A stretch of DNA of 64,000 nucleotides from an uncultured virus (IMG/VR IMGVR_UViG_3300005613_000039) (lineage: Duplodnaviria > Heunggongvirae > Uroviricota > Caudoviricetes): the IMG/VR virus record IMGVR_UViG_3300005613_000039, one strand, 5' to 3'. Shown in pieces: positions 19,072 to 60,129 of this stretch (position 1 is the first letter of the stretch; the number at the start of each line of letters is the position of its first letter). The notes under the pieces were generated by a model. It had not been told where the DNA came from and made no database searches. It saw nothing but the letters and a program-made list of their open reading frames with translations. The translations under genes and the position numbers were made by a program.

Positions 19072-19500
19072 CTAAAGTCGAGTGATCTTTGGTGAATTAG
19101 TAGCTTTACCTTTCTTCCAGCCAGACGTTCTCATAAAAACTTTCCAACCTTTAAATCTATCTTCTTCTATAATTGCTTCGTTCCCGTATTCTTCCCCAAT
19201 ATTTGCCATCCATTTATATACACGTTTTCGTTTCAAATCATAAATAATCTCATAAATTTTATCTTTATATAAGCCCATAAGAATTACAAATTGAATAGAT
19301 TTTTGAATAAAATTTCTTGAAAGTTTTTGTTGTCGAACTATTAGAAAATTATACGCTTCAAATCCTTCCAATCTACATTTAATACCTTTTAACTCGTGTT
19401 CGATAGCATTAATTGATACGTTCGAAGTTTCTAGCCACTTCGATTCAAAATCTTTTTTATTCTCGAAAACACTCTTATCATCAAAATATATTTTATACAT
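19072..19500 (-). CDS. Hypothetical protein
   Basis: ORF track; last gene of the - strand block. Confidence 0.6.
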   Translation of the reverse strand: MYKIYFDDKSVFENKKDFESKWLETSNVSINAIEHELKGIKCRLEGFEAYNFLIVRQQKLSRNFIQKSIQFVILMGLYKDKIYEIIYDLKRKRVYKWMANIGEEYGNEAIIEEDRFKGWKVFMRTSGWKKGKATNSPKITRL

Positions 19501-20254
19501 TTTTTATCCTTTGAATTATCGAATTTCTTATTAAAGATTGAGATATGTTTGAAGGATTTTTTTCTATTATAGAATAAAATTCTGCATGTGTTATCTTAGG
19601 AAATTCAGATATATGTGAATTCTTAGATACATTAAAAATTTTAGCTGATGTATTTATAAATGGTTTAAAATAATTATCACAATTCTTTTTATTATAGGGA
19701 TTTGTAGGATATTCAAAATTCCCGCCTCTTAATTTATTTCTTCCTACTCCTCCATACGCAAGACGTCCTAACCCTTTCTTGTTTAAATTTATTTCATTTT
19801 GATAAAAATGTGTCTCAAAGTTTGGACCCAATCCAGTTGCGTCATAACCAAGTAAATATATTTCTTTAAAATCTAATGCTATTGCAAGACTCAAAGCGAA
19901 TAGACCTACTAATTTTCCCGAATAAAGACCCTTTTTAAGTCCCTGTTTTGTATGATAATCTCTAGTAGCTATAAATAGAAATAAATTTGAACCAAGTTTA
20001 ATCTTTTCTTTTAATTGGGGATCATATTTGCCAATAATTAAACCTAACTTATCTAAATCTTTTTTATTTTCTATATAGAACTGAAAATCTACAAAACATG
20101 CGATTGTGGGTTTAAAATATTGATAACAGTAATTTAATCCAAAAGTACATTCATTTTTTATTCTTTTAAAAACTTCTAAATCTTTTGATTTTGAAATATG
20201 GTCATTATTTCTAATAGAATAACCTGAACCAATTATAATAGCTCTAGTATTCAT
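19493..20254 (-). CDS. DUF115/MptE-like (Maf-type glycosyltransferase-associated) protein
   Basis: AIIIGSGYSI..TFGLN..ACFVD..ALSLAIALDFKEIYLLGYD..THFY motifs. Confidence 0.7.
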   Translation of the reverse strand: MNTRAIIIGSGYSIRNNDHISKSKDLEVFKRIKNECTFGLNYCYQYFKPTIACFVDFQFYIENKKDLDKLGLIIGKYDPQLKEKIKLGSNLFLFIATRDYHTKQGLKKGLYSGKLVGLFALSLAIALDFKEIYLLGYDATGLGPNFETHFYQNEINLNKKGLGRLAYGGVGRNKLRGGNFEYPTNPYNKKNCDNYFKPFINTSAKIFNVSKNSHISEFPKITHAEFYSIIEKNPSNISQSLIRNSIIQRIKNV

Positions 20255-20683
20255 AGAATAGCTTTCTTTTAAATACTTTACTCAATAGATTGACATGATT
20301 TATAAAAATACGATACAAGATATGACTTTTTTATAATCGTCTCTTAGAATCGAAATATGAGCAATTTTTTACTTTATTTTAGATACTGTTTCAATTGTTT
20401 TGTCAATTGAATATGTTTGACAATAAACTTCCCAAACAGTCTCTTTAGATATTGCATAAGTCATACCAATCAAAGCACATATGCGTTTTATTAGAATTTC
20501 GTTCAATATAAAACCTCTATCTTGCTGAAACTTTTAAAAAATCTAAGTAACCTAATAATTTAAGCCCAACAATACCTCTTCTGGGTTTTTTAAAATATAA
20601 TAATTTGTGCGTTTTCTTTTCATAAACTGGTTTTAATCCATTTTTAATTAATCTGGCAATGATAGCATCTCTTTGATATTTAC

Positions 20684-21535
20684 TCATGATTTTTTCCTTT
20701 TGGCTCGTTCAAGATTTTTATATGTAACCCAGCCTGATATATTATATTTCTCTCTTAAATATTTTAATCCTTCTTGAAAATTTATTTGACGAAATTTGGC
20801 ATATTTATTTGATCTATTAGTCATTTTCTCGGCTTTTATATAATCAGTCCACGCTACTTTATAACCGGCACGTTTAAATCTCCAGAAGAAGTCTTCGTGT
20901 TCACCTAATTTTAAATTATTATCCCAAGCAACATCGATTAACTTATATGTTCTTGTGATAAAGAAGTTTCGCACGATATCGCATTTATAAATAGACGCTC
21001 GAGTCCAAGAAGCTAAATCTAATAAATCATTTTTTCTGCTTTTTTCAATAAAATCTAATTCAAACGATTTATTTTCGATCATGTTTAAATTAGCTTCCCA
21101 ATCACAACAGCAATTTTCTAGTTCAAACCCTATTAAATCAAGTCTTTCTTTACACCAAATTTTTAGATTTAAAATTTTTATAATTTCGTTAATTTTTTTA
21201 ATCGATTCATTAAATAAAAAGCTATCACTTCCAATTATCACATATTCACAATTTAATTCATGAGCTTTTTTTACTCCAAAATTTCTACAATATGATAATC
21301 CAGAATCAAAAGGCACATCAAAAATATGAATATGACTTGCTTGCTCTTTTTCAGCATGATATGTAAAAACTTTTTCTTTAGCTCTTTCGCTTTGATCTAC
21401 AATAATTAGTTCAAAACTATCTTGCCAATTATCTAAAAGAGATTGAACGCTCTTAAATAATAATTCGTTTCTCATAAAAGTTGTAATAATTATTCCGATT
21501 TTTTGCATTTTGTTTCTTCTCTTTGAAATAAACAA
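20684..21535 (-). CDS. Glycosyltransferase family 2
   Basis: IGIIITTF.R..LIIVDQS..GLSYCRNFG..WDNNLKLGEHEDFF; probable start at MQKIG. Confidence 0.8.
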   Translation of the reverse strand: MFISKRRNKMQKIGIIITTFMRNELLFKSVQSLLDNWQDSFELIIVDQSERAKEKVFTYHAEKEQASHIHIFDVPFDSGLSYCRNFGVKKAHELNCEYVIIGSDSFLFNESIKKINEIIKILNLKIWCKERLDLIGFELENCCCDWEANLNMIENKSFELDFIEKSRKNDLLDLASWTRASIYKCDIVRNFFITRTYKLIDVAWDNNLKLGEHEDFFWRFKRAGYKVAWTDYIKAEKMTNRSNKYAKFRQINFQEGLKYLREKYNISGWVTYKNLERAKRKKS

Positions 21536-22350
21536 GTATTACACGGATACGATTTTAAATTTCCAGAAGCCATTAATTCTCGAAACGCTTTGGCCTTTTT
21601 GTTGTAGAATATTGTAAATAAATTTTGATTATTATCATTTAGATTACCCAAGATAAATTTTTTATGTTCCTTCCAATCGCTTCTCAAATTACAGCAAGGC
21701 ATAATAATACCATTATAATCAATATAAATTCCCTTCGTAGGAACAAGACAAGGTGCAATTCGATTTGATACTTTATTTAATTTTGAAACTATTCCGCCTC
21801 TATTAACACCATTAACACAGAAATTTCGATAATATATATTAATGTTCATGTTTGCATAATTAGAGTTAACTGCTATTTTTTCCTTATTAGAAGTTCGAGA
21901 AATTTCATCTAATGATAGATTTTGCAATACTTTTATTATGTTTGATTCGATTATTTCATGCAAAGAATTAATTGGCATATAAATTTGAATATTTAAATTT
22001 CTTAATCCTGAATCATATAATTTTTTTATTACATCTTTATCTAAAAAATCTCCATTTGTATTTAAAGATAATAAAGCATTTGGGATTCTAGTACGAGCTT
22101 CTAATAATCTTTTATAAATAATCTTATCTGCTAAAGGTTCATTATATCTACTAAAAGAAATCATTTTATTATAATTAATTTGTTCTAAATTTTTTAAAAT
22201 TTTATTATAAATAAAATTTGACATGTATGTATTACCAGAATGTCTATCGATTACAGAATTCGAACAATGCCAGCATTGTCTATTGCAGTAAGAAAAGACT
22301 TCAATTTCTATTAATTCTACATTTTCTTTTAAATATTTTTTTGCAAACAT
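21490..22350 (-). CDS. Radical SAM/SPASM domain protein
   Basis: CNRQCWHC; NEPL; NTNGDFL; C-terminal C..P..IDYNG.IMPCC..LGNL..CxxC. Confidence 0.9.
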   Translation of the reverse strand: MFAKKYLKENVELIEIEVFSYCNRQCWHCSNSVIDRHSGNTYMSNFIYNKILKNLEQINYNKMISFSRYNEPLADKIIYKRLLEARTRIPNALLSLNTNGDFLDKDVIKKLYDSGLRNLNIQIYMPINSLHEIIESNIIKVLQNLSLDEISRTSNKEKIAVNSNYANMNINIYYRNFCVNGVNRGGIVSKLNKVSNRIAPCLVPTKGIYIDYNGIIMPCCNLRSDWKEHKKFILGNLNDNNQNLFTIFYNKKAKAFRELMASGNLKSYPCNTCLFQREETKCKKSE

Positions 22351-22361
22351 AAAATTCCTTT

Positions 22362-24497
22362 TTATTTTTTATAATTTTTCCAATCTGCACCATATAAATT
22401 CGTCAAATAAGGAAGAACAGGTAATGGTATTTTTATTGAGCTAGAAAAAAGTTTTCCTTCTTTTGTATTTCTACTTGAATAACTAAGATATATTTTACAG
22501 TTTTCTTTATTCCAACTATTTTCATCAAAAACCCAATCTTTTGTTTCTAGCATTTGAGCTATATCATTAACATTTTTGGTTCCTATATGCAATACTGTAG
22601 GGTAAATTACTAATTTTTTATAGCGAACACTATCCAAACAACTCTCATTTAATAAATGAAAATCTATATTTTCATTATTTAAATTTTGAAGAAGATTAGT
22701 AAAAATTATTTCTGATTTTGATGATACGAAACAATTCTTTATTTTTAATTCTTCATTTGTATTAATATTAACTCTACCTTCTGGTGTATAAAATCTTAAT
22801 TTTGTAACATTTTCTAATAAAGATGAACCCCGATTCATCATTTTCATATTACATTCAGTGTAAAATTTAAATCGTAAATAATGAATAAATCTTCTAACTG
22901 ATTTCCAATTTGGTTTTTTCGGATTTAAAATTAAATTTTTGATTTCCATTATATTATTAGCTTTTCGATTAATAGAATCATGTTGATAAAAAGCATTCCC
23001 TGTTATAATTACGGGTTTTTTCCACATCATTGATTGTAATCCAATTCCTGAATTTATAGTTAAAACAACATCTGAATACTTAATACAATCTTTGTAATGA
23101 TAATTATCAACAATTCTAATATTATCACTTTCTAACATTTTTTCAACTTCAACAGGATGATTTTTTACTAAAAATATAACATTATTCATTGTTTTGCTGA
23201 TATGTTCGATAATTTGCTTGAAATTATTCATAGATATTACCCAATCACTCCAAAGTAAAACAACAGTATCATCTTTAACTTGTAAAGGAACAAAAACTTT
23301 AGTAACATCAGAAGAAATATTAAGTTCTTGATTAAATTGCGATTTAGTCACAAAATTATTGTTTTGCTTTTCTAATGTATCTTCATTCGAAATAAAATCA
23401 TTTATATATTTTGTTATTTCTTTTTTTTCTTTTTCATTTAATGAAAAATTCCATCTATTTGAATTATAAGATGCACTGTCATATAAAAATCCATTATAGT
23501 CTAAAAATATTGTATTCGGTAATGCTCCTCTTTCAACATTATAAATGATTCTATTTTTTTCTCTACAATAATTCATTAATTTTTGTTTCCAAGAATGTCT
23601 CGGTAATTTAACATGACTCGCACTATTCCAAATAATTATAGGTTTTTTGGATTCTTTTAATTCTGTTAAATTATTTACAAATTCAATATTTAAATAATCT
23701 TTTAATTTTTTTATATATGGATGAATTCTATCGATTGATATAAATTCTAATGAATTCGGATTTATGATTTCTTCTCTATCAAAATAATTATTTACTAATG
23801 TCAGTTGTTTATTATAACTTGTTTTATAATTTTTTTCTTTCATATCAATTTTCTTATTAAATAGAGAAGAAAAGGCTCCTAACAAAGCATATAGATTTAA
23901 TTTTGTTGGAGCTTTTTTTAATATCTCCCACAATTCATAAGGAACATCTTGATAACCGCCAAATTGTTTTGATCTTTCCATCATATTATAATATCTTTTA
24001 AAAATAGAATTACAATTCCAATAAGGAGAATGTAAACCAACAATTCTAACATCTCTTTTTACAATATAGCCATCTTTTTTCATTCTTTCAGTTTGGTTAC
24101 TTTCACTCGCAATAGTATTTTGAAATGGATAATTTTTCAAAATTTCTGTCTTATTAATACGAACTCCTCTAATAATTTTATTTGAATGAGCATCTATTAA
24201 ATGAAAAATTTGCGTAACTATATCTGAATTTGATTTGATAATAGTATCATACATGATTTCAACAGCATCTTGATTTAAAATCATATCTTCATCTAATTGA
24301 ATAAAATAAGAAGTTTTGCATTTTTCAAACATTAAATTAAACGCTTTTGACATCGGATAAACATCTTCAATTTTTTCTACTTTAAATTTAACTGTTTGTT
24401 CATTTAAAGCTCGTAAACAAGTTTTATAGTTTTCTTGTTTTTCGACTGCAATAACAAAAATGGTCAATTCAGAAGATAAATCTTTTTTAAAATTCAT
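22362..24497 (-). CDS. Multidomain glycosyltransferase: GT2-like + KpsS/capsule-synthesis-like + LicD-like remnant
   Basis: QLDEDM (DxD); ERGALP..VFVPLQVKDD..VKNHP..TINSGIGLQ..KPVI..GNAFY; C-terminal PLPVLPYLTNLYGADW. Confidence 0.75.
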   Translation of the reverse strand: MNFKKDLSSELTIFVIAVEKQENYKTCLRALNEQTVKFKVEKIEDVYPMSKAFNLMFEKCKTSYFIQLDEDMILNQDAVEIMYDTIIKSNSDIVTQIFHLIDAHSNKIIRGVRINKTEILKNYPFQNTIASESNQTERMKKDGYIVKRDVRIVGLHSPYWNCNSIFKRYYNMMERSKQFGGYQDVPYELWEILKKAPTKLNLYALLGAFSSLFNKKIDMKEKNYKTSYNKQLTLVNNYFDREEIINPNSLEFISIDRIHPYIKKLKDYLNIEFVNNLTELKESKKPIIIWNSASHVKLPRHSWKQKLMNYCREKNRIIYNVERGALPNTIFLDYNGFLYDSASYNSNRWNFSLNEKEKKEITKYINDFISNEDTLEKQNNNFVTKSQFNQELNISSDVTKVFVPLQVKDDTVVLLWSDWVISMNNFKQIIEHISKTMNNVIFLVKNHPVEVEKMLESDNIRIVDNYHYKDCIKYSDVVLTINSGIGLQSMMWKKPVIITGNAFYQHDSINRKANNIMEIKNLILNPKKPNWKSVRRFIHYLRFKFYTECNMKMMNRGSSLLENVTKLRFYTPEGRVNINTNEELKIKNCFVSSKSEIIFTNLLQNLNNENIDFHLLNESCLDSVRYKKLVIYPTVLHIGTKNVNDIAQMLETKDWVFDENSWNKENCKIYLSYSSRNTKEGKLFSSSIKIPLPVLPYLTNLYGADWKNYKK

Positions 24498-25161
24498 AAT
24501 ATAATTCCTTTAAATCTTTGTAATATAACTCTTCAATCTTTTTTCTGGATTCTTTATCGTAGTATTCTTGATATTTTCTATGATTACTTTTCATTTTATG
24601 ATAAATTTTGCCTTTATAGTGAATATGATTACAAATTTTTTTAAAATCATTATTAAAATCTTCAAATCGTATTATATAATCTAATTTTTCAATATGTAAA
24701 GCTGTTGTTTGATGAGCTAAATGCAATTCAAAATTTTTTCGCTCATAAAGCAAATCTATAAAATTTTTAAAATTATTTTGATATTCTTTTTTATTATGCT
24801 TATCGATTCCATAATACTTGAGTATCTTATTATATTTGTTTCTCATAATTTTATGAGTATAAAAGGATACGATTCTGTCAAATGGATTTCTGATACAAGT
24901 AAATTTAAAATAATTTTTTGGTATTTCGTCAAAAGATAAGTGTTTGAAAAAATTTAAAGAATAGTGAGCTTCATGTATATCTTTATAATTTTTTGTTATA
25001 AAATTCAATCCATCCGCCTCTGCTAAAATAGTTTTAATAGTCGTACAGGCATTTTTTGGAGAATTGATATACGCTACTTTAAATTTTGGAAGAATTATAA
25101 TTTCTTTTTTCTCTACTGGCGAATGATATTTAATAGAATTCATTTTTAATAATCCCTCCAT
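24487..25161 (-). CDS. Sulfotransferase family 2 protein
   Basis: PKNACTTIK (5'-PSB) and FTCIRNPFDRIVSFY (3'-PB) motifs; IIRFE. Confidence 0.85.
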   Translation of the reverse strand: MEGLLKMNSIKYHSPVEKKEIIILPKFKVAYINSPKNACTTIKTILAEADGLNFITKNYKDIHEAHYSLNFFKHLSFDEIPKNYFKFTCIRNPFDRIVSFYTHKIMRNKYNKILKYYGIDKHNKKEYQNNFKNFIDLLYERKNFELHLAHQTTALHIEKLDYIIRFEDFNNDFKKICNHIHYKGKIYHKMKSNHRKYQEYYDKESRKKIEELYYKDLKELYYEF

Positions 25162-26216
25162 TTTGGTTTATTATTTTGCCGTTTTTTGATATCTCGATTT
25201 GTCATTCCTGTTTGTGAGATATCTCTTCCGTCATAAAATTTTGTTCCAGGAAAAGGCTCGAATTGATACCAACCCTGAACAGATAATTTATTTTTTTCGA
25301 TAAAATTTAAAGTCATTTGTCTATCTTCATCTGTTTCTGTAGGTGTGTGATGCATGAAAGAAGCCTTAACAGGCAATCGTAAGGAACGAGCTATATCAAT
25401 AACTCTTTGATTATCTTCAACAGTCGCTCCTTTATTTAAAACTTTTAAAATTCTATCTGATCCACTTTCTGCTCCAAAACGAATTTGAAAGAATCCCATT
25501 TCTTTCATTTTTTTTGCTATATCGAATGTTAATGCTCTGGCCGCTACAAAACTTCTTAACTTTAATCGCTTATTCCATTCTTTACTCATCCACATTTCAT
25601 AAATATTATAAAATCTACTCTTATGTGCAATAAACAAATCATCATAAATATATAATGTTGTAATATGTGGATATTTTTCTAATAGATATTCAACTTCACT
25701 TATAAAATATTCTGCACTATGAAATCTTACTTTTCCCCAAAAAGCAGAAGAGGCACAAAAATTACAATTATAACAACATCCTCTGGATGTAAAAATTGGA
25801 ATGGTTTCACAACATCGGCCTCGTTCTGGAAATTTTAACGAATCTAAGTTTTTAATATTGCTTAATTGTATTATTTTTTCTTCTGGCTCTTTTTCAAGAA
25901 TATAATTAAGTGCAAATTCTCCTTCTCCTTTAACTATATATTTAAAGGGATATTTTTCAACTTCATCCCAAAGAGTACCCTGTCCTCCAAGAATAATAGG
26001 AATATTTGTATTTTCTAATAATTTAATAGCTTCTTGAATTCCCCAAGCATTTGTTGATAATCCAATATAATCACAGTCAATTAAATCTTTACTGTCTCTT
26101 ACTAATTCGATATCGGCATTGCAATTAGATTTTAAATATCCAATAGCTAAAGGATATTCATTAAATACAGGATCTTCCCATCCACATTGATACATTTTAA
26201 TTTTTTTCATTCCCAC
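25146..26216 (-). CDS. B12-binding (class B) radical SAM protein
   Basis: PLAIGYL, IILGG, GEGE, TSRGCCYNCNFC, YDDLF, GAESGS. Confidence 0.88.
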   Translation of the reverse strand: MGMKKIKMYQCGWEDPVFNEYPLAIGYLKSNCNADIELVRDSKDLIDCDYIGLSTNAWGIQEAIKLLENTNIPIILGGQGTLWDEVEKYPFKYIVKGEGEFALNYILEKEPEEKIIQLSNIKNLDSLKFPERGRCCETIPIFTSRGCCYNCNFCASSAFWGKVRFHSAEYFISEVEYLLEKYPHITTLYIYDDLFIAHKSRFYNIYEMWMSKEWNKRLKLRSFVAARALTFDIAKKMKEMGFFQIRFGAESGSDRILKVLNKGATVEDNQRVIDIARSLRLPVKASFMHHTPTETDEDRQMTLNFIEKNKLSVQGWYQFEPFPGTKFYDGRDISQTGMTNRDIKKRQNNKPKWRDY

Positions 26217-26596
26217 ATACCTTTTTTTAATTCTTCTAAAGTTTTAAATCCCTCTTTTGTAAATAATCCACCTTGAATAAATCGTTCTATATCATCAGAA
26301 TCAATTTTTCCTTCTTTTACAAAAGCAATTTCTAATAAGATCGAATCTTCGTTTGCTATAAATTGATGTGTTAATGGAGGAAAAACATCAAATGCTTCGA
26401 AAGGAACTAATATTTTTATTCCTAAATCTGTTTTTAGCCGAACATTTCCTTTTAAGAGTATAAAACGATTAATTTTACTTTTATGCTTATGAATACTGCA
26501 CGCCGAATTCGCTTTTAATTTAAGTAAATCGATTTCACATAAATCATTTTCTAATACTCTATCTCTTTCGCCCCAAATTTTCAATATTTTACTCAT
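26207..26596 (-). CDS. Cupin-fold protein (sugar isomerase-like)
   Basis: KIWG..CSIHKHKSK.N.F..P..THQF..LLEI. Confidence 0.7.
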   Translation of the reverse strand: MSKILKIWGERDRVLENDLCEIDLLKLKANSACSIHKHKSKINRFILLKGNVRLKTDLGIKILVPFEAFDVFPPLTHQFIANEDSILLEIAFVKEGKIDSDDIERFIQGGLFTKEGFKTLEELKKGMWE

Positions 26597-26655
26597 TTAT
26601 TTATCCTCTTTTATTTTATATATTTGTAGAGCAAATATTATCGTGTCAAAAGCTT

Positions 26656-27468
26656 TTATTTGGTAATTCTTTTTGACACTTTGAACAGATTAAATCTTTT
26701 TTTAATTTCTTCTTGTATCTCATTTTGATGAATTTTTTGGATATTTTCGTTTAAACGATAATAAAATTCACTATATCCAATTTTTGGAAATATTTCAATT
26801 TTACTTTTTAATGAGACATTATAAATTTTTATATTTTTACTGACTGCTTTTTTAAATGGAGCAAACCATTTATTATTTAATTCGTTTATATTATTATAGT
26901 TGTTTGTTCGATATTGATTATTTGTTTTTCTTCCGACTCCACAATAAGTATTCTTGCGCCATAAATATGTACCTTCTAACACATCATAAAAATGTGTATA
27001 TCCGTCAATTTCACAAGCATCATAACCTAACAAATAAATTTCTCTGCATTCTAATTGAATAGCAAGCGACAAACCTGCTAATCCGATTAACTGAAAACAA
27101 TAAAGCTTATTAATATGTTGTTTGTTGTAATCTTCGCTATTCTCCACTAGATAAATATTATCTGGTATTTTTAATCTATTGTTTCGTTGTTCGTTTGCAT
27201 AAAAATCATCAAATCGTCCGATCACCAAATTTAATTTATTTAATTGTTCTTTATGTATATCATAAAATTGATAATCTCCATACATTTGAACTGTCGATTT
27301 GAACCATTTAAAAGAAAAATTTGTTCCAATAGTAAATTCGTCTTTTATAGCTTTCCAAATTGGCAATTTTCTTATTTTAATATGCCATAAATTTTCACGA
27401 ATACTACTTCCGCCACCAATAATTATTGCTCTATTCGGAATCATTTTTGAACGAGTCTTCGTTTGCAT
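26656..27468 (-). CDS. DUF115/MptE-like protein (paralog of 19493-20254)
   Basis: RAIIIGGGSSIR..GLSLAIQL..EIYLLGYDA..THFY; probable start MIPNR. Confidence 0.7.
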   Translation of the reverse strand: MQTKTRSKMIPNRAIIIGGGSSIRENLWHIKIRKLPIWKAIKDEFTIGTNFSFKWFKSTVQMYGDYQFYDIHKEQLNKLNLVIGRFDDFYANEQRNNRLKIPDNIYLVENSEDYNKQHINKLYCFQLIGLAGLSLAIQLECREIYLLGYDACEIDGYTHFYDVLEGTYLWRKNTYCGVGRKTNNQYRTNNYNNINELNNKWFAPFKKAVSKNIKIYNVSLKSKIEIFPKIGYSEFYYRLNENIQKIHQNEIQEEIKKRFNLFKVSKRITK

Positions 27469-34103: not shown

Positions 34104-34490
34104 TTACTCCTTTGATTTCCAATATTTTGATTCTAAAAGTACGTACATTATAACAGTTCCTACGATTCCATAAAAATAAAATTCTAATCCAATTAAAAAT
34201 CCCAAAATAACATTGATTAACAAAGTAGAAGCTGTTGTTAATCCTTCGACATTTTGTTTATATTGCGTTATAACACCATTACCAATAAAAGAAATGCCAG
34301 CAATTGTATAAGCCATCAGTCGAAAAAAATCAAAATGATAAACAGTTGATAATTTCTGAGACAATATAGCCACCAAGCATGCACTTAAACAGACAATTGC
34401 CATAGTACGAGAACCACCGCTTTTCTCGTGTCTTTTTCTCTCTTTTCCAAGAATCCATCCTGTTAAAATTGATAATAAAATTCTAAGCAT
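34104..34490 (-). CDS. MgtC/SapB family membrane protein (membrane domain only)
   Basis: LG.ER..GSRT..GISFIGNGVI..VEGLTTAS. Confidence 0.85.
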   Translation of the reverse strand: MLRILLSILTGWILGKERKRHEKSGGSRTMAIVCLSACLVAILSQKLSTVYHFDFFRLMAYTIAGISFIGNGVITQYKQNVEGLTTASTLLINVILGFLIGLEFYFYGIVGTVIMYVLLESKYWKSKE

Positions 34491-34998: not shown

Positions 34999-35655
34999 TT
35001 ATCTCGTTGTATATGGCTGTTTAATCATATCTAAAAATCTTTTCACATCTGATAATGGTTCAAGAATAGATAATCCTTTATCTGTAAATAAGTTCCATCT
35101 TATCATACCCCAATTAATACCAACTAATTCTCCGTTGACATTAAAAACTCCTCCACCTGAACATCCCGAGATTGTATGATAATCCCCGTATTGCCAATCT
35201 TTACTTTTTCTTTTAATATTACCCCCCGAAACTAATTCTCCTTCGCTTGGATAACCTAAATGATAAACTTTATCTCCTATATTTGTTTGTTTGCGAGCTA
35301 AATCGACTGCAACCTTGTTTTTTATGCGAGGAGCAACAACTATTGCCAAATCATCGTCATTTGAAACGGAAGTATAAGTTGATAATTCATTATCAATATA
35401 AACTTCTTCGAACGTGCCCGTACAGTGTTTTGCGGTTAAAGTGACACTATAATCTTTACTATTTTCGATAAGTACACCAGTACAGATACCAGTTTTATTT
35501 CCTATCGAAAAAATAGCAACTGTTGATTTCTGCATTAAATAAGTCAAAGATGGTGGAACTTCGGGTGTTTCAGACTTCAATACATCATTTTGACTGTATG
35601 AAGATGTGCAAAAAATTGCACAAATAGCTATAAAAATAATTAATATTTTTCTCAT
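34999..35655 (-). CDS. Secreted trypsin-like serine protease
   Basis: Signal peptide; TAKHC, DLA, GCSGG catalytic triad motifs. Confidence 0.85.
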   Translation of the reverse strand: MRKILIIFIAICAIFCTSSYSQNDVLKSETPEVPPSLTYLMQKSTVAIFSIGNKTGICTGVLIENSKDYSVTLTAKHCTGTFEEVYIDNELSTYTSVSNDDDLAIVVAPRIKNKVAVDLARKQTNIGDKVYHLGYPSEGELVSGGNIKRKSKDWQYGDYHTISGCSGGGVFNVNGELVGINWGMIRWNLFTDKGLSILEPLSDVKRFLDMIKQPYTTR

Positions 35656-36271: not shown

Positions 36272-36302
36272 AAGTATAACATATCAAATCATGCTTTGTC
36301 GA
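36272..36302 (-). promoter_or_regulatory. Sigma70-type promoter (TCGACA-18-TATACT, extended -10)
   Basis: Minus strand TCGACAAAGCATGATTTGATATGTTATACT followed by AAAGGAG SD and ATG; near-identical to 57154-57184. Confidence 0.65.
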
Positions 36303-39300
36303 GTGTTTGTGAACTTATCGAGTCCAGTTTTTTATTAACTTCCTTTGTTTTCAATGACTTAGAAGATTTCTTTTTATTGAGATTTACTTCAAAATTAGTA
36401 ATTAAAACTTCTTGTGATTGATGTTTTGATTTATCACTATATCCCCCAACCTTGGCATTATACTTTTTACTTAAATAATATAGATTATAATTTTTAGCAA
36501 ATTCTTTCAAAAGAATATTTTCTTTATTCCCCTTTGTTATAATATTTGATAAACACCATTTTGACTTAATAGTAGATAACCAATTTAAGAATTTTTCTTC
36601 TTCTTTGTTATCCCAAGAGCCAGCTGTATAACAATCATTTGATAATAAATAAGGTGGGTCTAAATATAATAATGTATTTTCATTTACTTTTGTTTTATCA
36701 TATGATTGAAATAAAATATTAAATTTTGAAACTTTACTCTCTAAACTCTCTAAACTATGCTTAACACATCTTCTTCCCCAAGTCTGATTAAATTCTCCTT
36801 TTAAATTAAATCTTGCTAAATTGTTAGTACAACTCCCTAATAAAATATGAAACAATGCACTTTTTTCAATTGAACTATTTAAAGAATTAAACTTAGCTCT
36901 TATTTCATTATAATAGTCTTGATCGTCTCTAATTCTTTCAATGTCATAAGACTCAATAATAGCAACTAAGGCTTTATTGTTATTTTTGATATAATACCAT
37001 AAATCAATTAAATGTTTATTTGTATCTGCAATAGTATATGATTTAGCTTCTGTATTTAAACTAAATACAGCACTGCCTGCAAAGGCCTCATAAATACTAT
37101 CACATTTTGACTGTTTAAAAACTTTTTGTAAAATAGATAATAAAGTCTTCTTATTGCCTGGCCACTTAAAAGGATATAATACATTTTTTGGTTTAGGAAA
37201 ATCTTTGATATTTATTATTTTTTCTGATTTGATTTTAAATTCTTTGCTTTGTTTTTTCTGTGACTCAATAGACTTATTTTTCTCTTTTCTTCTTTTTTTA
37301 ACCTCTTTGGCACTATAATGCTTTTTTAATTCCTCAAAATTATCACAATTTTCAAGCAATTTATTACGATACTGACTGCCTAAAATAATTTCATACGATT
37401 CTGCCAAATCTAATAAATCAGTTGACCAATTTAATCCTTTAAAAATAGGCACTAATATATTTAAAATATTTTTTTCAATCATTGCTTTCCAGTCTACATT
37501 ATTCTTTGCAATATGCTCATAATATTTATTTCCTAATGCGATTTTTTCTACGCTTTTACAATAGATAATATAAAATCTATCGCCAATTAATTTATTAAAT
37601 TCAGGAACTAATTTCTTGGCTTCTTCTAAAGGTTTAAGCCACTTTGGAGTTGTTTTATAGTCTTCTATATTTTTATTGATTTTTACAGGTAAAGATATAT
37701 CTCGAATGTCTGAGTTTTTCATTGCCTCAATTTGCTGATCTAGCCACTTTAAAAGCACTTCTTTATCTGTTCCATCTAAAATCATATCATATAGTTTTTC
37801 TTGAAAAGATTTAACCCATTTTCCAGTGTCTCGTCTTTTCATTTGAATACCTTTAGTTTCTATTTTTTGACCTTTTTTGGGTCGTTCTAGTCTTCCTCTA
37901 TAACGACACATGGCTTGGATAAAAATTGAGCTAAAAAATCCCTCATAGTCGAATTGAATATTGATATCAACATTGTTATACTTTTCTAATCCCCATTCAA
38001 TTGCCCACTGATTTAATTTAGATGTAATATCTTCTTGTCCCTGATAAAAGACCGAATCAGTGTCAATATAACGAATTTGATAATTGTGTTTATCGAGTTT
38101 CTTTTCTACATAGTGTAACAAGTCTCTAACAAGAAATGTAATTGTATCTGCAACATCAGCATTATATAATCTAAAGTAGGGCATGCCGAAAACGCCAAAC
38201 GCTGAATTAACTAAGGCTTTTCTTGAATCATAAGCAATTTGTGTTTGTTTGTATTTTGGATGATCTGAATCCATCTGAGTCAATGTATTCTTTAATTCAT
38301 TTTTCATTTTCAACAATCTTGCTGTTAATGTTGGAAGAATTGTATTAGAATCTTGTTTGATATGATATGTTGTTTTAAATTGTTTTGATTCTCTATACAA
38401 TACATCTATTTGAATAGTGTCTTCTTTTGATTGAGAGACATAATTTTCGGGCGATAAACAAAAATCAATAATAGCTTGTGGATAAGCTCCGGAAAGATCA
38501 ACCTTGGCTAAATCTTTATAAAGACCTGTTCCAAACGTGTCACGATAAGCACCTTCTACATCTCCCTTTTCACCTTCACGATTCTTACTAGGAAGCACGA
38601 TGTTTAATTTTTTAGCCTCTTCTAAAGCTAACATGTCAATCAACTTACTATTATTAGATTGCCATTGATAAGCTCTCATTTCGCTAGGAAGGTCTTCCCA
38701 ATCGCATCTTGTTAATAATCGAATTTCATCAAAGTATTCAAATAAATTCAATTTTTCATTTAATTCGACCATTTTTTTAACGTCAAGAATATTCTTCTTT
38801 TTGGCAACTTTGATATCTGTAAAGTCAAAATCGCCTTCAATCTCATAATCTAACTCATCATTAGCAACATTCATTAAGGCGTAAGAATCCTTTTTGTGTA
38901 AAGTGTATTTTGCATAAAGTCCCATCAAGTCAACAATAGAAATCCCTGCTGGCATTTCGAATCCTTTACGCCAATGAGATTGATTAATCGATGAAATCTT
39001 TTTAGGAAAATCATTGATTCTATAATAAAGATAGTGATAGTCAAATGAACTATTCCATGCACAATTATGTGTTAAAATATTATTTCCAATATAAATATGA
39101 TATTTATCTAAAGAAATTTCAATTGTTTTTTGTTTCCCGTTAGGTTTGATGTCTTGAATTTTTTCAAAAATATATTGATTAATAAACGTATTTAAATTTT
39201 GTAATTTGTATTTTTTATATTGAGATAATTTATTGTCTATTAGCAATCTTCGGATTAGTTTTAAAGCGAATTCTCGATTGATTGTTTCTTTAGATTGCCA

Positions 39301-40764
39301 AAATCTATTTTTTTCTTCATAAGTTAATTCTAAATTCCATTTTTTAATTAATTTATATAGATAATTTTTTAATGGAATAACATCCAAGGAACACTTACTA
39401 GAGTAATCAAGCCATTCTTTTTTGTTTTCATGTTGACAAAATAACTCTTTATTATTTTTAGATTGATAAATTGATAACGAATAAAAATCTTTTCTGAGAG
39501 ATTTTCCTAATCTTTTACTAATTTTATTAGGTATTCCCACTCCCCATAAAATATACGAAGTCCAATCTACTAAAGATTTATCTATTGTTCCACATTGCAA
39601 ATGCTTATTAACTAAACATCCATCGCCATCTATAAATCCAGAAATAAATGATAATTGTTCGTTTGGCTGTAATAAATTCAAATATTCTATAAGATTTTTT
39701 TGCATATCTTTTATTTTTGAAATTAAATTTATTACTTCTAAAGATTGAATACTATATAAAATATAACAATTTTTATATTTTTTGATAGTTGATTTAATAT
39801 TTAGATTATTTAAATATTCTTGAGCTTTTAACAAACAATTATAATTACTGTCTTTGATTTCAATTCTTTTATTATTTCCTTTCGTGCCATCGGCTTGATA
39901 ATATCCCAAAAGCCAATGCAATGATGAAAATTCACCAGAACTTTTAATGTAGTTAGTAGGAATTAAAAAGTAATCGTCAATAGTAATTTCTTCGGCCTTT
40001 TTTAAAGTTGTTAAATTGTAATCATTTTGGATAATTAAATTCTGATTTAATACAGGAAATTTATGATTAAACGAAGCAATGATGTTGTTTGTTCGTGTAT
40101 AAAATTTTAAAGTGTCACGAAATGTATTAAATTTATTTGTAATTTTTGCTTCTTGATAATTGTGTTGATTGTTTAACGATAATAAAGTTTCGCCAACTTG
40201 ACAATTCTTTATTTTTTTGAATCCATTCATAGTTTTAACAATTGTTTCTGGGTCTAAACACATAACATCTGGCTTTATATGTTTAATTTCTTGGCAAAAC
40301 TTTTCTAACATCTCCCATTCAGATTCATAATCTTCGATATAAAATGTTTTATACTTCTGAATATAATTATCATACATAGTAATTACAGAAACAGGATATT
40401 TAGCTTGCTGTTCTTCTTTTGGTTGAGGTAATTCTGAAGCTTGAACTTCAATATCAAAGTAGATTATTCGTGTTTTTGATTTTTCGAACGTGGGAATTTT
40501 ATCCAAGATATATCTTTTGGTATAAATAATATCAGCTTCATGAGCTTGAGAACTTTTTTGTTTTCGTACTTCTGAAGGCTTATTACAATAAATTTTTTTT
40601 AGTGCTTGTCCATAAATAGAAACAGCATCTGATTCTTTATCTGATGTTGGCTCGTAATAGTAGGGATAAAAAGATTTATCGTCTCGAACAGATAAACTTC
40701 CATCTTCATTTCGTATAAATAAATAAACATCTTTTTCATTGTTGGCAATATTCTGAATTTTCAT
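36289..40764 (-). CDS. polB: Family B DNA polymerase with intein, fused to C-terminal Dam-type (D12 class) N6-adenine methyltransferase
   Basis: ExoI FDIE, ExoII (spliced) PDVM/CAWNSSFD, DLSGAYP, KALVNSAFG, YIDTDSVF; then PFKWPGNK, EAFAGS, RFNLKGEFN, YLDPPY in one uninterrupted frame. Confidence 0.9.
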   Translation of the reverse strand: MKIQNIANNEKDVYLFIRNEDGSLSVRDDKSFYPYYYEPTSDKESDAVSIYGQALKKIYCNKPSEVRKQKSSQAHEADIIYTKRYILDKIPTFEKSKTRIIYFDIEVQASELPQPKEEQQAKYPVSVITMYDNYIQKYKTFYIEDYESEWEMLEKFCQEIKHIKPDVMCLDPETIVKTMNGFKKIKNCQVGETLLSLNNQHNYQEAKITNKFNTFRDTLKFYTRTNNIIASFNHKFPVLNQNLIIQNDYNLTTLKKAEEITIDDYFLIPTNYIKSSGEFSSLHWLLGYYQADGTKGNNKRIEIKDSNYNCLLKAQEYLNNLNIKSTIKKYKNCYILYSIQSLEVINLISKIKDMQKNLIEYLNLLQPNEQLSFISGFIDGDGCLVNKHLQCGTIDKSLVDWTSYILWGVGIPNKISKRLGKSLRKDFYSLSIYQSKNNKELFCQHENKKEWLDYSSKCSLDVIPLKNYLYKLIKKWNLELTYEEKNRFWQSKETINREFALKLIRRLLIDNKLSQYKKYKLQNLNTFINQYIFEKIQDIKPNGKQKTIEISLDKYHIYIGNNILTHNCAWNSSFDYHYLYYRINDFPKKISSINQSHWRKGFEMPAGISIVDLMGLYAKYTLHKKDSYALMNVANDELDYEIEGDFDFTDIKVAKKKNILDVKKMVELNEKLNLFEYFDEIRLLTRCDWEDLPSEMRAYQWQSNNSKLIDMLALEEAKKLNIVLPSKNREGEKGDVEGAYRDTFGTGLYKDLAKVDLSGAYPQAIIDFCLSPENYVSQSKEDTIQIDVLYRESKQFKTTYHIKQDSNTILPTLTARLLKMKNELKNTLTQMDSDHPKYKQTQIAYDSRKALVNSAFGVFGMPYFRLYNADVADTITFLVRDLLHYVEKKLDKHNYQIRYIDTDSVFYQGQEDITSKLNQWAIEWGLEKYNNVDINIQFDYEGFFSSIFIQAMCRYRGRLERPKKGQKIETKGIQMKRRDTGKWVKSFQEKLYDMILDGTDKEVLLKWLDQQIEAMKNSDIRDISLPVKINKNIEDYKTTPKWLKPLEEAKKLVPEFNKLIGDRFYIIYCKSVEKIALGNKYYEHIAKNNVDWKAMIEKNILNILVPIFKGLNWSTDLLDLAESYEIILGSQYRNKLLENCDNFEELKKHYSAKEVKKRRKEKNKSIESQKKQSKEFKIKSEKIINIKDFPKPKNVLYPFKWPGNKKTLLSILQKVFKQSKCDSIYEAFAGSAVFSLNTEAKSYTIADTNKHLIDLWYYIKNNNKALVAIIESYDIERIRDDQDYYNEIRAKFNSLNSSIEKSALFHILLGSCTNNLARFNLKGEFNQTWGRRCVKHSLESLESKVSKFNILFQSYDKTKVNENTLLYLDPPYLLSNDCYTAGSWDNKEEEKFLNWLSTIKSKWCLSNIITKGNKENILLKEFAKNYNLYYLSKKYNAKVGGYSDKSKHQSQEVLITNFEVNLNKKKSSKSLKTKEVNKKLDSISSQTLDKA
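39064..40260 (-). mobile_element. Intein (399 aa) with LAGLIDADG homing endonuclease in PolB exonuclease domain
   Basis: Starts CLDPET; HKF block B; LLGYYQADG and FISGFIDGDG; ends THN followed by Cys. Confidence 0.92.
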
Positions 40765-53565: not shown

Positions 53566-53748
53566 TTATTCTTCATCAATAAAATCCTTATATTCAGCTT
53601 TATAAGCTTTTTCTATCCATTCATCTCTATATCTTTCGAAAGTAAGAATATATGTTTCTCCTATTTCTATTTTTTCTTTTGAATAGATACAGTATAAATG
53701 AGAATTTGTATAATTTGTTTTAGTAATTTTACTTTTCATTTTTATCAA
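53566..53748 (-). CDS. Hypothetical protein
   Basis: ORF track; C..E.IE.GE.Y pattern. Confidence 0.45.
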   Translation of the reverse strand: MIKMKSKITKTNYTNSHLYCIYSKEKIEIGETYILTFERYRDEWIEKAYKAEYKDFIDEE

Positions 53749-54226
53749 TTTCCGTATAAGGTTTTAGAGCGTTGGGGTATTTTTCAATGATTTCTTTCGC
53801 TTTTAAATTTAACTCTTGTATCCATCCAGTTTTAACTTTTGGAGGTCTATCATCAATCCAATTTTCATTTAACATACTGTCTCTAAGAACAACTAAAGTG
53901 GCAACAGCTTTTACAATATGATTTACTCCCGAGTCTCTGTCAATGTCTTCGCCCTCCCACCAAGCAGTCAAATGACGAAATAATGCGTCATAGTATACAC
54001 TGGCTCGAACTCCCACAATTCTATAATTATGGCGCCCATATTTTCTGGCACCCTCGAGCATTGCATTTCCTATCTCTGCTATAACTGGGGAAGGAACTGT
54101 AGAAAAAGGAACTTTCTTTGTACCAACTGCATCTTTGGGATTCGAATCTTTTGTTTTATTTTCTAACTTAGGTCTTGATTTTGGTTTAGGTCTTTTTCTT
54201 TTGGGCCCATAAGATTTAAATAACAT
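53729..54226 (-). CDS. dATP/dGTP diphosphohydrolase-domain protein (DUF5664-like)
   Basis: NPKDA.G..K.P..EGA.KYG..N.R..YYDA..RHL.AWWEGEDID.DSG..H..DDRP. Confidence 0.85.
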   Translation of the reverse strand: MLFKSYGPKRKRPKPKSRPKLENKTKDSNPKDAVGTKKVPFSTVPSPVIAEIGNAMLEGARKYGRHNYRIVGVRASVYYDALFRHLTAWWEGEDIDRDSGVNHIVKAVATLVVLRDSMLNENWIDDRPPKVKTGWIQELNLKAKEIIEKYPNALKPYTEIDKNEK

Positions 54227-54441: not shown

Positions 54442-54674
54442 ATTATTTTCTCTCTTTGATAATCATAAACTGCTTGTGAAATTTTATCGCACATTTTCAT
54501 AAGAGTTTCATAATTTTCTGGTTTATTATTTTGTAAGCCATGTCCGTGACCTGAAGTATATAGATCACACATATTAGCATAAGTAAATGCTTCTGGATGC
54601 GATGGATTTTTATAAAATTCAGATAATTTCTTTAATTTTTTACAATGCCCACATTTTTTCTTTTGTTTATTCAT
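54438..54674 (-). CDS. Hypothetical protein
   Basis: CGHCKK.K.LSEFY. Confidence 0.5.
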   Translation of the reverse strand: MNKQKKKCGHCKKLKKLSEFYKNPSHPEAFTYANMCDLYTSGHGHGLQNNKPENYETLMKMCDKISQAVYDYQREKII

Positions 54675-55350
54675 ATATAGCTCCGGCCAGGCGTCTGTAA
54701 AAAGATTCTAAAACTTTCTTTTCTAGCAATTCATCTACACTGCTCACAATCCAAGAAGCTTGTTCTGTAAAAGGATGACTTTCGTATGCTTCCCTTTTGT
54801 TATCAGGTACAATCAATACAACAGGTTTTTCTTTTTCGTATGCCCAACACAACTCAAAATAAGTACCCATTGATGGTCTATATTCTTCAATCTTATGAAT
54901 TAAATCAATTAATTTTCTCATTAAATCGTCTTTAGAATCCGTTGTGTGTGGTGTATATTTATACATGTCATCTAAAAAGAAATCATCTAAATTAGCAACT
55001 ACAATATCACATTTATTAACCGACATTCTATCACCATGAAAAATAGCATGAGCGGGAATGTGAGACTTCAATCCTTTTTTGTCGATAGTTTTAACTTCTT
55101 TACCATTATAAGGATCAAGAAATGCAATAGGAAATGATAAATAACCATTTTTGATATCGTGCAATCCAAAAGCACTTTTAACTTTAAAAGTTAACTCTTC
55201 CCATTCTCTATAATATTTTCTAATTCTTTTTCTCCACTCTGTTGTCTCTTTTAATTTTTCTCCGCTCATGTAGCCAGCCAAATAGACGTACATTAATGGA
55301 AGATCAACACCTTTTGAATGAGCATATTTAATATCGGGATTAAAATTCAT
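54667..55350 (-). CDS. Nucleoside 2-deoxyribosyltransferase-like protein
   Basis: VYLAG, D..CDIVVANL, SMGTYFEL.WAY..KPVV; start taken at MNFNP. Confidence 0.75.
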   Translation of the reverse strand: MNFNPDIKYAHSKGVDLPLMYVYLAGYMSGEKLKETTEWRKRIRKYYREWEELTFKVKSAFGLHDIKNGYLSFPIAFLDPYNGKEVKTIDKKGLKSHIPAHAIFHGDRMSVNKCDIVVANLDDFFLDDMYKYTPHTTDSKDDLMRKLIDLIHKIEEYRPSMGTYFELCWAYEKEKPVVLIVPDNKREAYESHPFTEQASWIVSSVDELLEKKVLESFYRRLAGAIYE

Positions 55351-55625
55351 TCTACATCTCCATTTTTTAAAATAGCTGACGATTCGTAAGGAGCAATTAA
55401 TCGGCGATATATTTCCAAAACACAACAAACCAATGTACCAACGATTAAAGCGAAAATCCAGTATCGTTTACCATTTTTTCTTATCCATGCCTTAACTAAT
55501 CGATAGTTTAAATAATTAACATGACCAGCGAAATCTTGAGCTGATAAATTAGTATAATGATTTTCTAGTTCTAAACCGCCCGAATCAGTAACTTTTTCTT
55601 TTTGACATTTTTTAAGATATGGCAT
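55347..55625 (-). CDS. Conserved phage hypothetical protein
   Basis: MPYLK..G..NY..E.YRR..APYE..I.KNGDV. Confidence 0.65.
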   Translation of the reverse strand: MPYLKKCQKEKVTDSGGLELENHYTNLSAQDFAGHVNYLNYRLVKAWIRKNGKRYWIFALIVGTLVCCVLEIYRRLIAPYESSAILKNGDVE

Positions 55626-59314: not shown

Positions 59315-60129
59315 TATTTTTTCCCCTTTCTGAATTTGAACTTTTTAACTGCAACATCTATAATTTCTTTGGGCTCTAAAGTAAGATATTCTTCAGTCAT
59401 TTTTATATCCCAATGTCCCATCATTTCTTTAACTCTTTTTAAATCAATACCTTGCGATAAACAATGATGACAGAAACCATGTCTACACTGATAAGCATTT
59501 AAATGTCTTTTATATCCAAGCATTTCATTTATTTTTTGAAAAGTATATTTAATATAAATTTCTGAAATATTGAACAATTTTTCACCTTGAGACGATTCGC
59601 ATAATTTTTTGAGTTCTAATTGCAGTTGAGGTACAAGTAAAGTCATTCGATCTTCTTTATCTTTAGTATTTCTTACAATTATCCAATTATTTTTAAAATC
59701 TAAATCTTGTTTTTTTAATTTAATAATTTCATCTGGTCTTAATCCACTACAAAACATTAATCTAACAATCAATTTTCGTTGTTCTGAATCTTTTTCAAAC
59801 AATAAGTCAAAATAAGGAAGTATTTCTTCCTCTAATTCTTTCAAAGTTAAAAATGCTTTTTTCTTTTTCTTTGTGATTTTTTTCTGTTTAGGAAATTCAA
59901 TATCTAATTTTTTAAATCGAGTATAATGCTTTAGAGCAGTCATGTACCCATTAAATGTACTTGTTTTTAATTGATTGTCTACACAGCTTGCCAGAAAATC
60001 ATTAACAGTTTCTTGATTGAATATGGCATATTTTTTAAAAAACATCTTCATTCTATACCAATATTGTACTCTACTCTTATCAGAGTCAAGATTTAATTTT
60101 AAATAATTTTTAAATTCATCTAACTGCAT
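59314..60129 (-). CDS. Tyrosine recombinase (XerC/D-like integrase)
   Basis: GLR..E, TK..DR, (H>Y)QCRH, MMGH..T..Y. Confidence 0.88.
   Translation of the reverse strand: MQLDEFKNYLKLNLDSDKSRVQYWYRMKMFFKKYAIFNQETVNDFLASCVDNQLKTSTFNGYMTALKHYTRFKKLDIEFPKQKKITKKKKKAFLTLKELEEEILPYFDLLFEKDSEQRKLIVRLMFCSGLRPDEIIKLKKQDLDFKNNWIIVRNTKDKEDRMTLLVPQLQLELKKLCESSQGEKLFNISEIYIKYTFQKINEMLGYKRHLNAYQCRHGFCHHCLSQGIDLKRVKEMMGHWDIKMTEEYLTLEPKEIIDVAVKKFKFRKGKK

Follow-up and report, generated by a model that had tools for sequence, protein, structure and literature searches.

Within a 64,000-nucleotide (nt) stretch of DNA from an uncultured tailed virus of sediment microbes (IMG/VR record IMGVR_UViG_3300005613_000039; the whole stretch is hereafter called the window), a single open reading frame (ORF) on the minus strand encodes a replicative family-B DNA polymerase (PolB) that carries a Dam-type adenine DNA methyltransferase (MTase) inside its C-terminal tail. 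The ORF (36289..40764, stop codon included) starts with ATG, specifies 1,491 amino acids (aa) and consists of PolB, an intein that interrupts it, a linker, the MTase and a C-terminal tail. We are confident that the fusion is real and that its MTase is intact. As to its function, we lean towards the reading that this is a genuine, maintained PolB-Dam fusion that methylates GATC during replication as a defence against restriction, a statement that we consider, taken as a whole, somewhat probable. Coordinates refer to the window unless another sequence is named, and all features of the fused gene lie on the minus strand.

The MTase is inserted in frame into the polymerase tail

The polymerase of the window is a family-B enzyme. 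Its N-extein (residues 1-168, 40261..40764), delimited by alignment to relatives, comprises the N-terminal/exonuclease part with the motif FDIEV; residues 1-169 were 71-72% identical to residues 1-169 of the related polymerases P0003 and P0002, and the N-extein DNA shared 76% nt identity with locus L001. The C-extein (residues 568-1164, 37273..39063), delimited by the PF00136 match and by blastn blocks, contains the palm, fingers and thumb together with the first part of a Lys-rich tail (ending in KEVKKRRKEKNKSIE), and was 75-86% identical to P0003 and P0002. The DNA_pol_B profile (PF00136) matched residues 704-1086 with 98.7 bits (Pfam cut-off 23), and in PHROGs the polymerase part matched phrog_262, DNA polymerase (E 1.7e-55), and the MTase part DNA methyltransferase (5.2e-45). 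The translation contains DLSGAYP, KALVNSAFG and YIDTDS, which we take to be polymerase motifs A, B and C. The 3'-5' exonuclease domain (PF03104) received no Pfam call in the window protein, the N-terminal part of which is interrupted by the intein; it was called in the intein-free P0003, P0007 and P0010-P0013. A preliminary description of this DNA had reported one 1,491-aa frame with PolB and MTase motifs, and every motif quoted there, including KEVKKRRKEKNK, PFKWPGNK, EAFAGS, RFNLKGEFN, DPPY and EVLITNF, was found in the translation, with DPPY at exactly the position given (36649..36660).

Comparison with the tails of related polymerases indicates that the MTase is an in-frame insertion within the Lys-rich C-terminal tail of PolB, with homologous tail on both sides. 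L001 contains no counterpart of an insert of 898 nt (36376..37273; gene nt 3492-4389), which is absent from MTase-less relatives and stands in place of a 112-nt 'EFWVKN..' mini-cassette of L001 (nt 3363-3474 of the L001 gene). The polymerase tail before the insert (ending in KEVKKRRKEKNKSIES, with KEKNKSIES) and after it (KKKSSKSLKTKEVNKKLDSISSQTLDKA, with KKKSSKSLKTK..LDKA) aligns with tails that are uninterrupted in P0014, P0003 and P0002, and the score of this local alignment was reached by none of 300 shuffles. The tail retained after the MTase, identified by its homology to the tails of relatives, comprises about 28 residues (1464-1491, 36292..36375). The 48 nt located 3' of the insert were 95.8% identical to the L001 tail, compared with 76-79% across the remaining gene, and the gene order shared with relatives resumes downstream of the fused gene. 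The in-frame fusion proposed in the preliminary description stands, with both domains intact, except that the two are not joined end to end, since about 28 residues of PolB tail follow the MTase.

The reading frame of the insert contained no stop codon, compared with 48 and 20 stops in the other two frames, so that its openness is far beyond chance in DNA of 25-30% G+C. The linker (residues 1165-1192, 37189..37272; QKKQSKEFKIKSEKIINIKDFPKPKNV), flexible and basic, leads into the MTase, and in the clade of fused proteins described below the ~15 residues at its end are conserved. From residue 1136 up to the MTase domain we found no stop codon and no in-frame ATG, GTG or TTG, confirming an earlier remark that the linker lacks both a stop and a Met start. 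Around the junction, promoter-like sites were not enriched (18, compared with 14.6 +/- 4.1 in shuffled sequences), and no terminator-like site was seen. Two further origins of the arrangement were considered and ruled out. Neither a group I intron nor a second intein harbours the MTase, since no Hint domain flanks it and the reading frame runs without a break from and into homologous tail. Nor does an alternative genetic code create the fusion, as translation under table 11 leaves the frame open and no tRNA gene was detected.

A JGI contig, L007, corresponds to window positions 41808-37206 with 1 mismatch in 4,603 nt and extends 68 nt into the insert, which confirms the upstream junction. In addition, an ENA contig of 53,715 bp, shorter than the 64-kb window, is on record with the identical 1,491-aa protein. 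The window is an assembly of environmental DNA, and L007 ends inside the linker, at window position 37206, where a branch of the assembly graph could lie; both points favour an artefact, either a chimeric assembly or the loss, by sequencing error, of a stop codon between two genes. We consider such an origin extremely improbable, given that two in-frame junctions return to the gene's own tail and then to downstream synteny, that the MTase has neither a start nor a stop codon of its own, that L007 crosses the upstream junction almost without mismatch, and that five other proteins, from several sources and on contigs of up to 99 kb, have the same architecture.

The polymerase tail also contains a run of seven A residues (GTT AAA AAA AGA; 37293..37299), from which the -1 frame stops after 6 codons (KKKREK*) and the +1 frame after 25. 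This run is a possible slippage site that would give a polymerase-only product. Four runs of six A residues lie near it.

The MTase looks active and is likely specific for GATC

The MTase is a Dam-type (D12 class) N6-adenine DNA MTase domain spanning residues 1193-1458 (envelope; 36391..37188), as judged from Pfam, NCBIfam, alignment and structural modelling. The MethyltransfD12 profile (PF02086) matched residues 1201-1436 with 108.9 bits (Pfam cut-off 22), covering model positions 1-252 of 253, and the NCBIfam profile TIGR00571 'dam' matched with 134.8 bits (cut-off 114.85). In a 60-sequence alignment, all seven invariant columns were present in the window domain: the G and K of PGNK, the G of FAGS, the D, P and Y of DPPY and the E of EVLITN. 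DPPY (residues 1369-1372, 36649..36660), in which D269, P271 and Y272 of the alignment are invariant, is presumably catalytic motif IV; we take the FxGxG-like EAFAGS, with G130 invariant and F128 nearly so, to be motif I, which binds S-adenosylmethionine (AdoMet).

The preliminary description had suggested an AlphaFold model of the spliced protein. The part modelled, residues 1101-1491, showed a Dam-like MTase core with a predicted local distance difference test score (pLDDT) above 90, a mean pLDDT of 85.2 and linkers at 48-65. The best Foldseek matches of the model were T4 Dam (1yf3, E 6e-20), E. coli Dam (2g1p, template modelling (TM) score of 0.86 on the target) and DpnM (2dpm, E 7.5e-15), all three of which are GATC enzymes, and the TM score on the target was 0.76-0.86 across the Dam structures. 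The best PDB matches by sequence were again T4 Dam, E. coli Dam and DpnM, with T4 Dam giving a full-length match (E 1e-19, residues 5-259). The domain thus exceeds the curated profile cut-offs, possesses catalytic and AdoMet motifs and has a Dam-like predicted fold; with its catalytic motifs intact and its fold matching those of T4 Dam, E. coli Dam and DpnM, it looks active. It resembles these three enzymes (1yf3/1yfj, 2g1p and 2dpm) in fold, in DPPY, in the FxGxG-like motif and in an N-terminal K, and it differs from them in being only 22-28% identical and embedded in a polymerase, whereas they are free-standing.

For E. coli Dam, PMC4417163 names K9, Y119, N120, L122, R124, P134 and Y138, located in a hairpin loop and at the N-terminus, as the residues that recognize GATC, and describes R124, which contacts guanine, as the first and most discriminating contact (PMC4417163). 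Four of these seven are kept in the window domain (K9 as K1200, N120 as N1314, L122 as L1316 and R124 as R1318) and three are replaced (by T1313, T1328 and R1332); the recognition loop was invariant in an alignment of eight sequences of the clade. Taken together, fold and residues make specificity for GATC likely, though short of proof.

Related fused MTases occur on two polymerase backbones

The preliminary description had proposed a search for the architecture DNA_pol_B plus MethyltransfD12, and this search yielded five further fusions on two PolB backbones. Among long proteins with the MTase profile, 19 were found, namely 13 double MTases of ~710 aa and six polymerase fusions: the window protein (P0001) and P0217-P0221, which come from several sources and from contigs of up to 99 kb. 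Other genomes, too, encode the PolB-D12 architecture. In P0221, the PolB is of the window type (33% identical) and the MTase shares 50% identity with that of the window. P0217-P0220 have a divergent PolB without any BLASTP match to the window PolB, with 49-64% mutual identity in their polymerase parts, two of which carry inteins; their MTase domains are nevertheless 64-72% identical to that of the window. A linker motif, EI[ND]I..[FY]PKxKN, located upstream of YPFKWPGNKK, is common to P0001 and P0217-P0220, so the linker and MTase have stayed fused as one module while moving between polymerase backbones.

In a tree of 49 MTase domains from a quick IQ-TREE maximum-likelihood search, the six fused and four stand-alone domains (P0055, L088, P0056 and P0065) formed one clade, with 100 in the SH-like approximate likelihood ratio test (SH-aLRT). 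Five fused domains, including that of the window, were monophyletic (SH-aLRT 95), with the window domain nested among those of the other backbone, and P0221 grouped with stand-alone enzymes. The nearest MTases outside the fused group were stand-alone proteins of 270-281 aa (P0055, L088 and P0056, with 55%, 52% and 45% identity, respectively). Among 71 listed relatives of the second backbone, D12 was present in three and a C5-cytosine MTase in one (P0251). The end tail that follows the MTase is present in the window protein and in P0220.

The closest complete relative, G001 (91,833 bp, terminal repeats present), encodes a PolB that shares 86% identity with that of the window, and no D12 gene was found anywhere in it. 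No relative of P0055 or P0217 was found in IMG/VR, and P0217 carries only the label Dam family methyltransferase in NCBI. None of 1,048 cultured-phage records covered at least 80% of a query consisting of the PolB tail and the MTase; the nearest PolBs of cultured viruses, ~23% identical, belong to haloarchaeal tailed viruses.

GATC is strongly depleted in relatives and tolerated in the window

We counted GATC in 82 records (80 JGI loci, G001 and the window), with L007 set aside as the window's own sequence. The window contains 85 GATC sites, evenly spread, where 222 are expected from a Markov model or 170 from base composition, whereas G001 has two in 91,833 bp, compared with 243 expected. Fifty-one records had at least 10 expected sites; 36 of these have two or fewer (3 observed in total, 1,236 expected), and 15 tolerate GATC. 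A minority of the clade has ratios of observed to expected sites of 0.2-0.9. Some redundancy is contained in this count, as G001 and L008 are apparently the same or nearly the same virus. The near GATC-free sequences are G001 (L002-L006), L008, L010, L011, L014 and most of L013-L086.

Among close syntenic relatives, the two sequences with a D12 MTase had ratios of 0.38 (the window, fused) and 0.35 (L012, which has a separate, unrelated and very divergent D12 gene, Pfam 5e-15), and G001/L008, L010 and L011, with no D12 in the DNA examined, did not exceed a ratio of 0.01. GATC was present, at ratios of 0.13-1.07, in every one of the 16 IMG/VR loci that have stand-alone D12 relatives. When G001 was compared with the window over all 4-mers, GATC was the strongest outlier. 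These counts are moderately strong evidence that the virus clade is under strong GATC-directed restriction and that the lineage of the window has been free of it for a time sufficient to regain sites; this regain would mean, with the same moderate strength and short of proof, that the fused MTase works.

Another reading is that the MTase serves mainly something other than anti-restriction, either as a sliding DNA-binding or processivity module or in writing the virus's own marks for packaging, late-gene timing or strand discrimination. Such a role would fit the lack of a recognized sliding-clamp gene in the 64-kb window, the under-representation of GATC in the window and the presence of T at the position equivalent to the intercalating Y119. 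We consider it improbable. Invariance of all catalytic and cofactor motifs in the clade speaks for catalysis; GATC has been lost clade-wide, a sign of restriction aimed at this very sequence; Mom and C5-MTase, which take the place of the MTase in relatives (see below), are classic anti-restriction modifiers; and ~28 kb of a genome of ~92 kb lies outside the window, where a clamp gene may be found.

The polymerase C-terminus holds different modules in relatives

In other polymerases, the position occupied by the MTase, or the gene that follows, holds other modules. Mom (PF25680, E 1e-37 to 1e-44) is fused to the C-terminus of PolB in P0008, P0016 and P0017, and locus L070 has a separate Mom gene directly after PolB (L070:5718-6455). 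In P0251 (1,036 aa), a C5-cytosine MTase (PF00145, E 5e-44) occupies residues 736-944, fused to the divergent PolB backbone. P0020, P0025, P0026, P0027 and L032 (L032:8991-12695) have an ABC-type ATPase fused to PolB, and an ABC-like gene directly follows PolB in G001/L008, L009 and L012; the ABC-ATPase gene is absent from the window. After the ATPase, a weak GNAT match of 17.7-19.5 bits, below the cut-off of 23.6, was obtained in the rescanned P0026 and P0027 and in the L001 gene located 3' of PolB (L001:9141-10526), and this ATPase may be a further DNA-modification module. Mom and the ABC-ATPase plus GNAT module are known or predicted modifiers of DNA bases (PMC7824862). The domain content thus suggests that DNA-modification modules, namely Dam, C5-MTase, Mom and the ABC-ATPase with a weak GNAT match, replace one another at the C-terminus of PolB or in the gene that follows. 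Two exceptions were seen: P0033, a PolB fragment with an FtsX permease, which may be a chimeric or mis-called protein, and P0036, in which a domain of the uracil-DNA glycosylase (UDG) superfamily lies at the N-terminus of PolB.

A mini-domain of ~30 aa ('EFWVKNxETxxEYLVTKDAYEASKExLE') is variably present at one position of the tail on both polymerase backbones, in the tails of P0002, P0005, P0006 and P0218.

This diversity is also what gives weight to a reading in which the fusion is real and the MTase active with no functional coupling between MTase and polymerase. The 3' end of polB and the next gene would be a recombination hot spot for anti-restriction cassettes, an in-frame landing would merely borrow early expression, and the methylase would act like an orphan phage Dam, perhaps freed by proteolysis; slippage at the A7 run may also give a polymerase-only product. 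Very different modules do share the one slot, either within PolB or in the gene behind it; the tail gains and loses small cassettes (EFWVKN.., for example) at one position; modules have moved between two polymerase backbones; most members of the polymerase clade are unfused; and stand-alone MTases (P0055, L088 and P0056) fall within the clade of the fused domains. Also in its favour are the flexible linker (pLDDT 48-65), the early stop in the -1 frame after the A7 run and a trypsin-like protease encoded nearby in the window (34999-35655). We nevertheless regard this reading as unlikely. A single clade unites five fused MTases (64-72% identity to the window domain), which have remained fused across a change of backbone with a conserved linker motif, which is hard to explain if the fusion is neutral. 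Moreover, the four kinds of module that recur at the slot are known or predicted to modify DNA, with no unrelated functions apart from the possibly chimeric FtsX case and the N-terminal UDG.

The intein and the genome context

The polymerase is interrupted by an intein with a LAGLIDADG homing endonuclease (residues 169-567, 399 aa; 39064..40260), which starts with CLDPETIV and ends with THN before C568. The LAGLIDADG_3 profile matched with 54.7 bits (Pfam cut-off 22.5), and the Intein_splicing profile matched with only 20.6 bits, under its cut-off of 35.8. Its boundaries are evident in the translation (C169 at the start; THN567, then C568), and L001 and P0003 lack an intein at this site, so that the weakly matched Hint splicing part, the endonuclease part, terminal residues and absence from orthologues all mark it as an intein. 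Its length of 399 aa agrees with the spliced protein of 1,092 aa given in the preliminary description. Among orthologous polymerases, inteins of differing types (LAGLIDADG_3, LAGLIDADG_2 and Hom_end) are located at differing sites: 39064-40260 in the window, residues ~569-909 of P0002 (the L001 PolB) and residues ~373-700 of P0014, with others in P0218 and P0220. Since both types and sites differ, repeated independent invasions of these polymerases by inteins appear to have occurred.

The window is a genome fragment of a tailed virus with ~29% G+C; its structural genes, up to ~19 kb, lie on the plus strand and its replication genes on the minus strand. The neighbours of the fused gene include a DnaQ-like exonuclease, the end of which overlaps the start of polB, and RecA/UvsX-like, RuvC, RuvB, PrimPol, 5'-3' exonuclease, RtcB and integrase-family proteins. 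The RecA, RuvB and RuvC of the window are of bacterial type. The bin labels of relatives conflict, naming Helarchaeota, Thorarchaeota and Promethearchaeota (Asgard) on the one hand and Patescibacteria on the other.

Several other features of the window were recorded. An N-terminal domain of dATP/dGTP diphosphohydrolase (PF18909, 4.6e-26; 53729-54226) adjoins a weakly nucleoside 2-deoxyribosyltransferase-like ORF (54667-55428), and the window showed no PurZ-like gene. A minus-strand island (19493-27468) with glycosyltransferases, a capsule-synthesis-like gene, two radical-SAM proteins (one with SPASM), a sulfotransferase-like ORF and a sialyltransferase-like ORF may serve surface or glycan modification. 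An MgtC-family membrane protein (PF02308, 4e-29; 34104-34490, minus strand) is encoded within the replication module, and a tyrosine-recombinase gene of the phage integrase family has the gene of an RtcB RNA ligase (PF01139, 1e-112) immediately upstream (58055-60129, minus strand).

Discussion

The arrangement suggests how the fused enzyme might work. After splicing of the intein, the virus would produce a replicative PolB of ~1,092 aa that bears a Dam-type MTase, the target of which is most probably GATC, in a flexible Lys-rich tail. Through the covalent tether, the MTase would be made early, simultaneously with the polymerase and in equal amount, and would be held beside the duplex leaving it. 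Both daughter duplexes could then be methylated as they are made, before another round of replication yields fully unmethylated, cleavable DNA, and nascent DNA would be shielded from a GATC-cutting restriction enzyme of the host. The retained end tail may dock to another part of the replisome. We infer methylation at the fork from the covalent tethering and, likewise, the GATC specificity, the activity and the anti-restriction purpose from the evidence presented above.

A number of observations weigh against this reading of a maintained fusion that methylates GATC during replication. L007 spans only the upstream junction of the insert, and the ENA contig with the identical protein may share its source sample with the window. 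The linker was predicted at low confidence (pLDDT 48-65). Three of the seven recognition residues of E. coli Dam are changed (Y119 to T1313, P134 to T1328 and Y138 to R1332), so that GATC specificity is not certain. Among 54 PolB relatives compared (820-2,610 aa, the window's included), PF02086 was present only in the window's own protein, leaving 53 of 54 unfused, and 67 of the 71 relatives of the second backbone had no MTase at all; with most members of both polymerase clades unfused, tethering would appear to be optional. On the second backbone, the retained end tail seems dispensable, since P0217, P0218 and P0219 stop immediately behind the MTase, and the MTase tree came from the quick rather than the careful search.

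The GATC counts admit similar objections. CCGG also differs between the two genomes, with a ratio of 0.05 in G001 (1 site, ~20 expected) and 1.08 in the window (23 sites), and no cytosine MTase was seen among the window proteins; a different host with other restriction enzymes could therefore explain part or all of the GATC difference. GATC in the window is still only 0.38 of expectation. Finally, in the DNA examined, a D12 gene was seen in just two of the 15 GATC-tolerant records; the other 13 are fragments and for this reason neither support nor refute a link between MTase and GATC.

A more far-reaching proposal is that a group of viruses of roughly 90-100 kb from sediment uses the PolB C-terminus as a plug-in slot for exchangeable DNA-marking enzymes, through which the replisome writes anti-restriction marks, and that lineages without a suitable module purge the target site, which would explain the near-absence of GATC. 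The tether would then be functionally required and outperform a free enzyme, and the Dam domain may add processivity. We put this forward tentatively and consider it, in its entirety, doubtful.

The two enzymes joined here are each well known, and viral replicative polymerases fused to a DNA-base enzyme are already known as a kind. A-family phage polymerases fused to UDG are described for SPO1-like, N4-like and SP15-like groups, and a PolB-DNA ligase fusion is mentioned for giant viruses such as PgV-16T (PMC13697223). The PolA-UDG proteins likewise join a viral polymerase to a base enzyme, with a proposed coupling of replication and base processing; they differ in being A-family enzymes with an N-terminal glycosylase directed to repair or lesion handling, and the window protein, a B-family polymerase with an MTase, falls outside that group. 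The PgV-16T type also joins PolB to a second DNA enzyme and differs in that this enzyme is a ligase, the hosts are eukaryotic and no base is modified. Orphan phage MTases have a presumably similar role, viral self-methylation against host restriction, and are encoded by separate genes, often in replication modules, whereas the window domain belongs to the polypeptide of the replicative polymerase and has neither a start nor a stop codon of its own. In eukaryotes, DNMT1 bound to PCNA carries out replication-coupled maintenance methylation. The concept of an MTase kept at the replisome is alike in the two cases; DNMT1, however, is recruited non-covalently through a clamp and is a C5-cytosine enzyme of unrelated lineage and purpose. 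The Mom of phage Mu (PF25680) and the ABC-ATPase plus GNAT modules occupy the slot in relatives and not in the window, and their chemistry is the transfer of acyl or carbamoyl groups to adenine.

In the open-access library searched we found no description of a PolB-methyltransferase, PolB-Mom or PolB-C5-MTase fusion. In the available part of PMC7824862, Mom is described as fused to nuclease domains of restriction-endonuclease fold, with no mention of a polymerase fusion (PMC7824862), and the accessible portion of an Asgard virus preprint reports PolB, PrimPol and D12 MTases in such viruses and mentions no fusion.

Self-methylation of viral DNA normally depends on free enzymes, which have to keep up with very rapid replication, and a methylase built into the polymerase, if the reading is true, would be a covalent answer to this timing problem. 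PolB-Dam would then be a prokaryotic-virus counterpart of the replication-coupled methylation of eukaryotes, and such a natural enzyme could possibly find practical use in marking newly synthesized DNA. For this group of viruses, the modules found in the polymerase slot, together with the GATC-purged relatives, provide a natural comparative system in which avoidance of a restriction site can be set against its modification.

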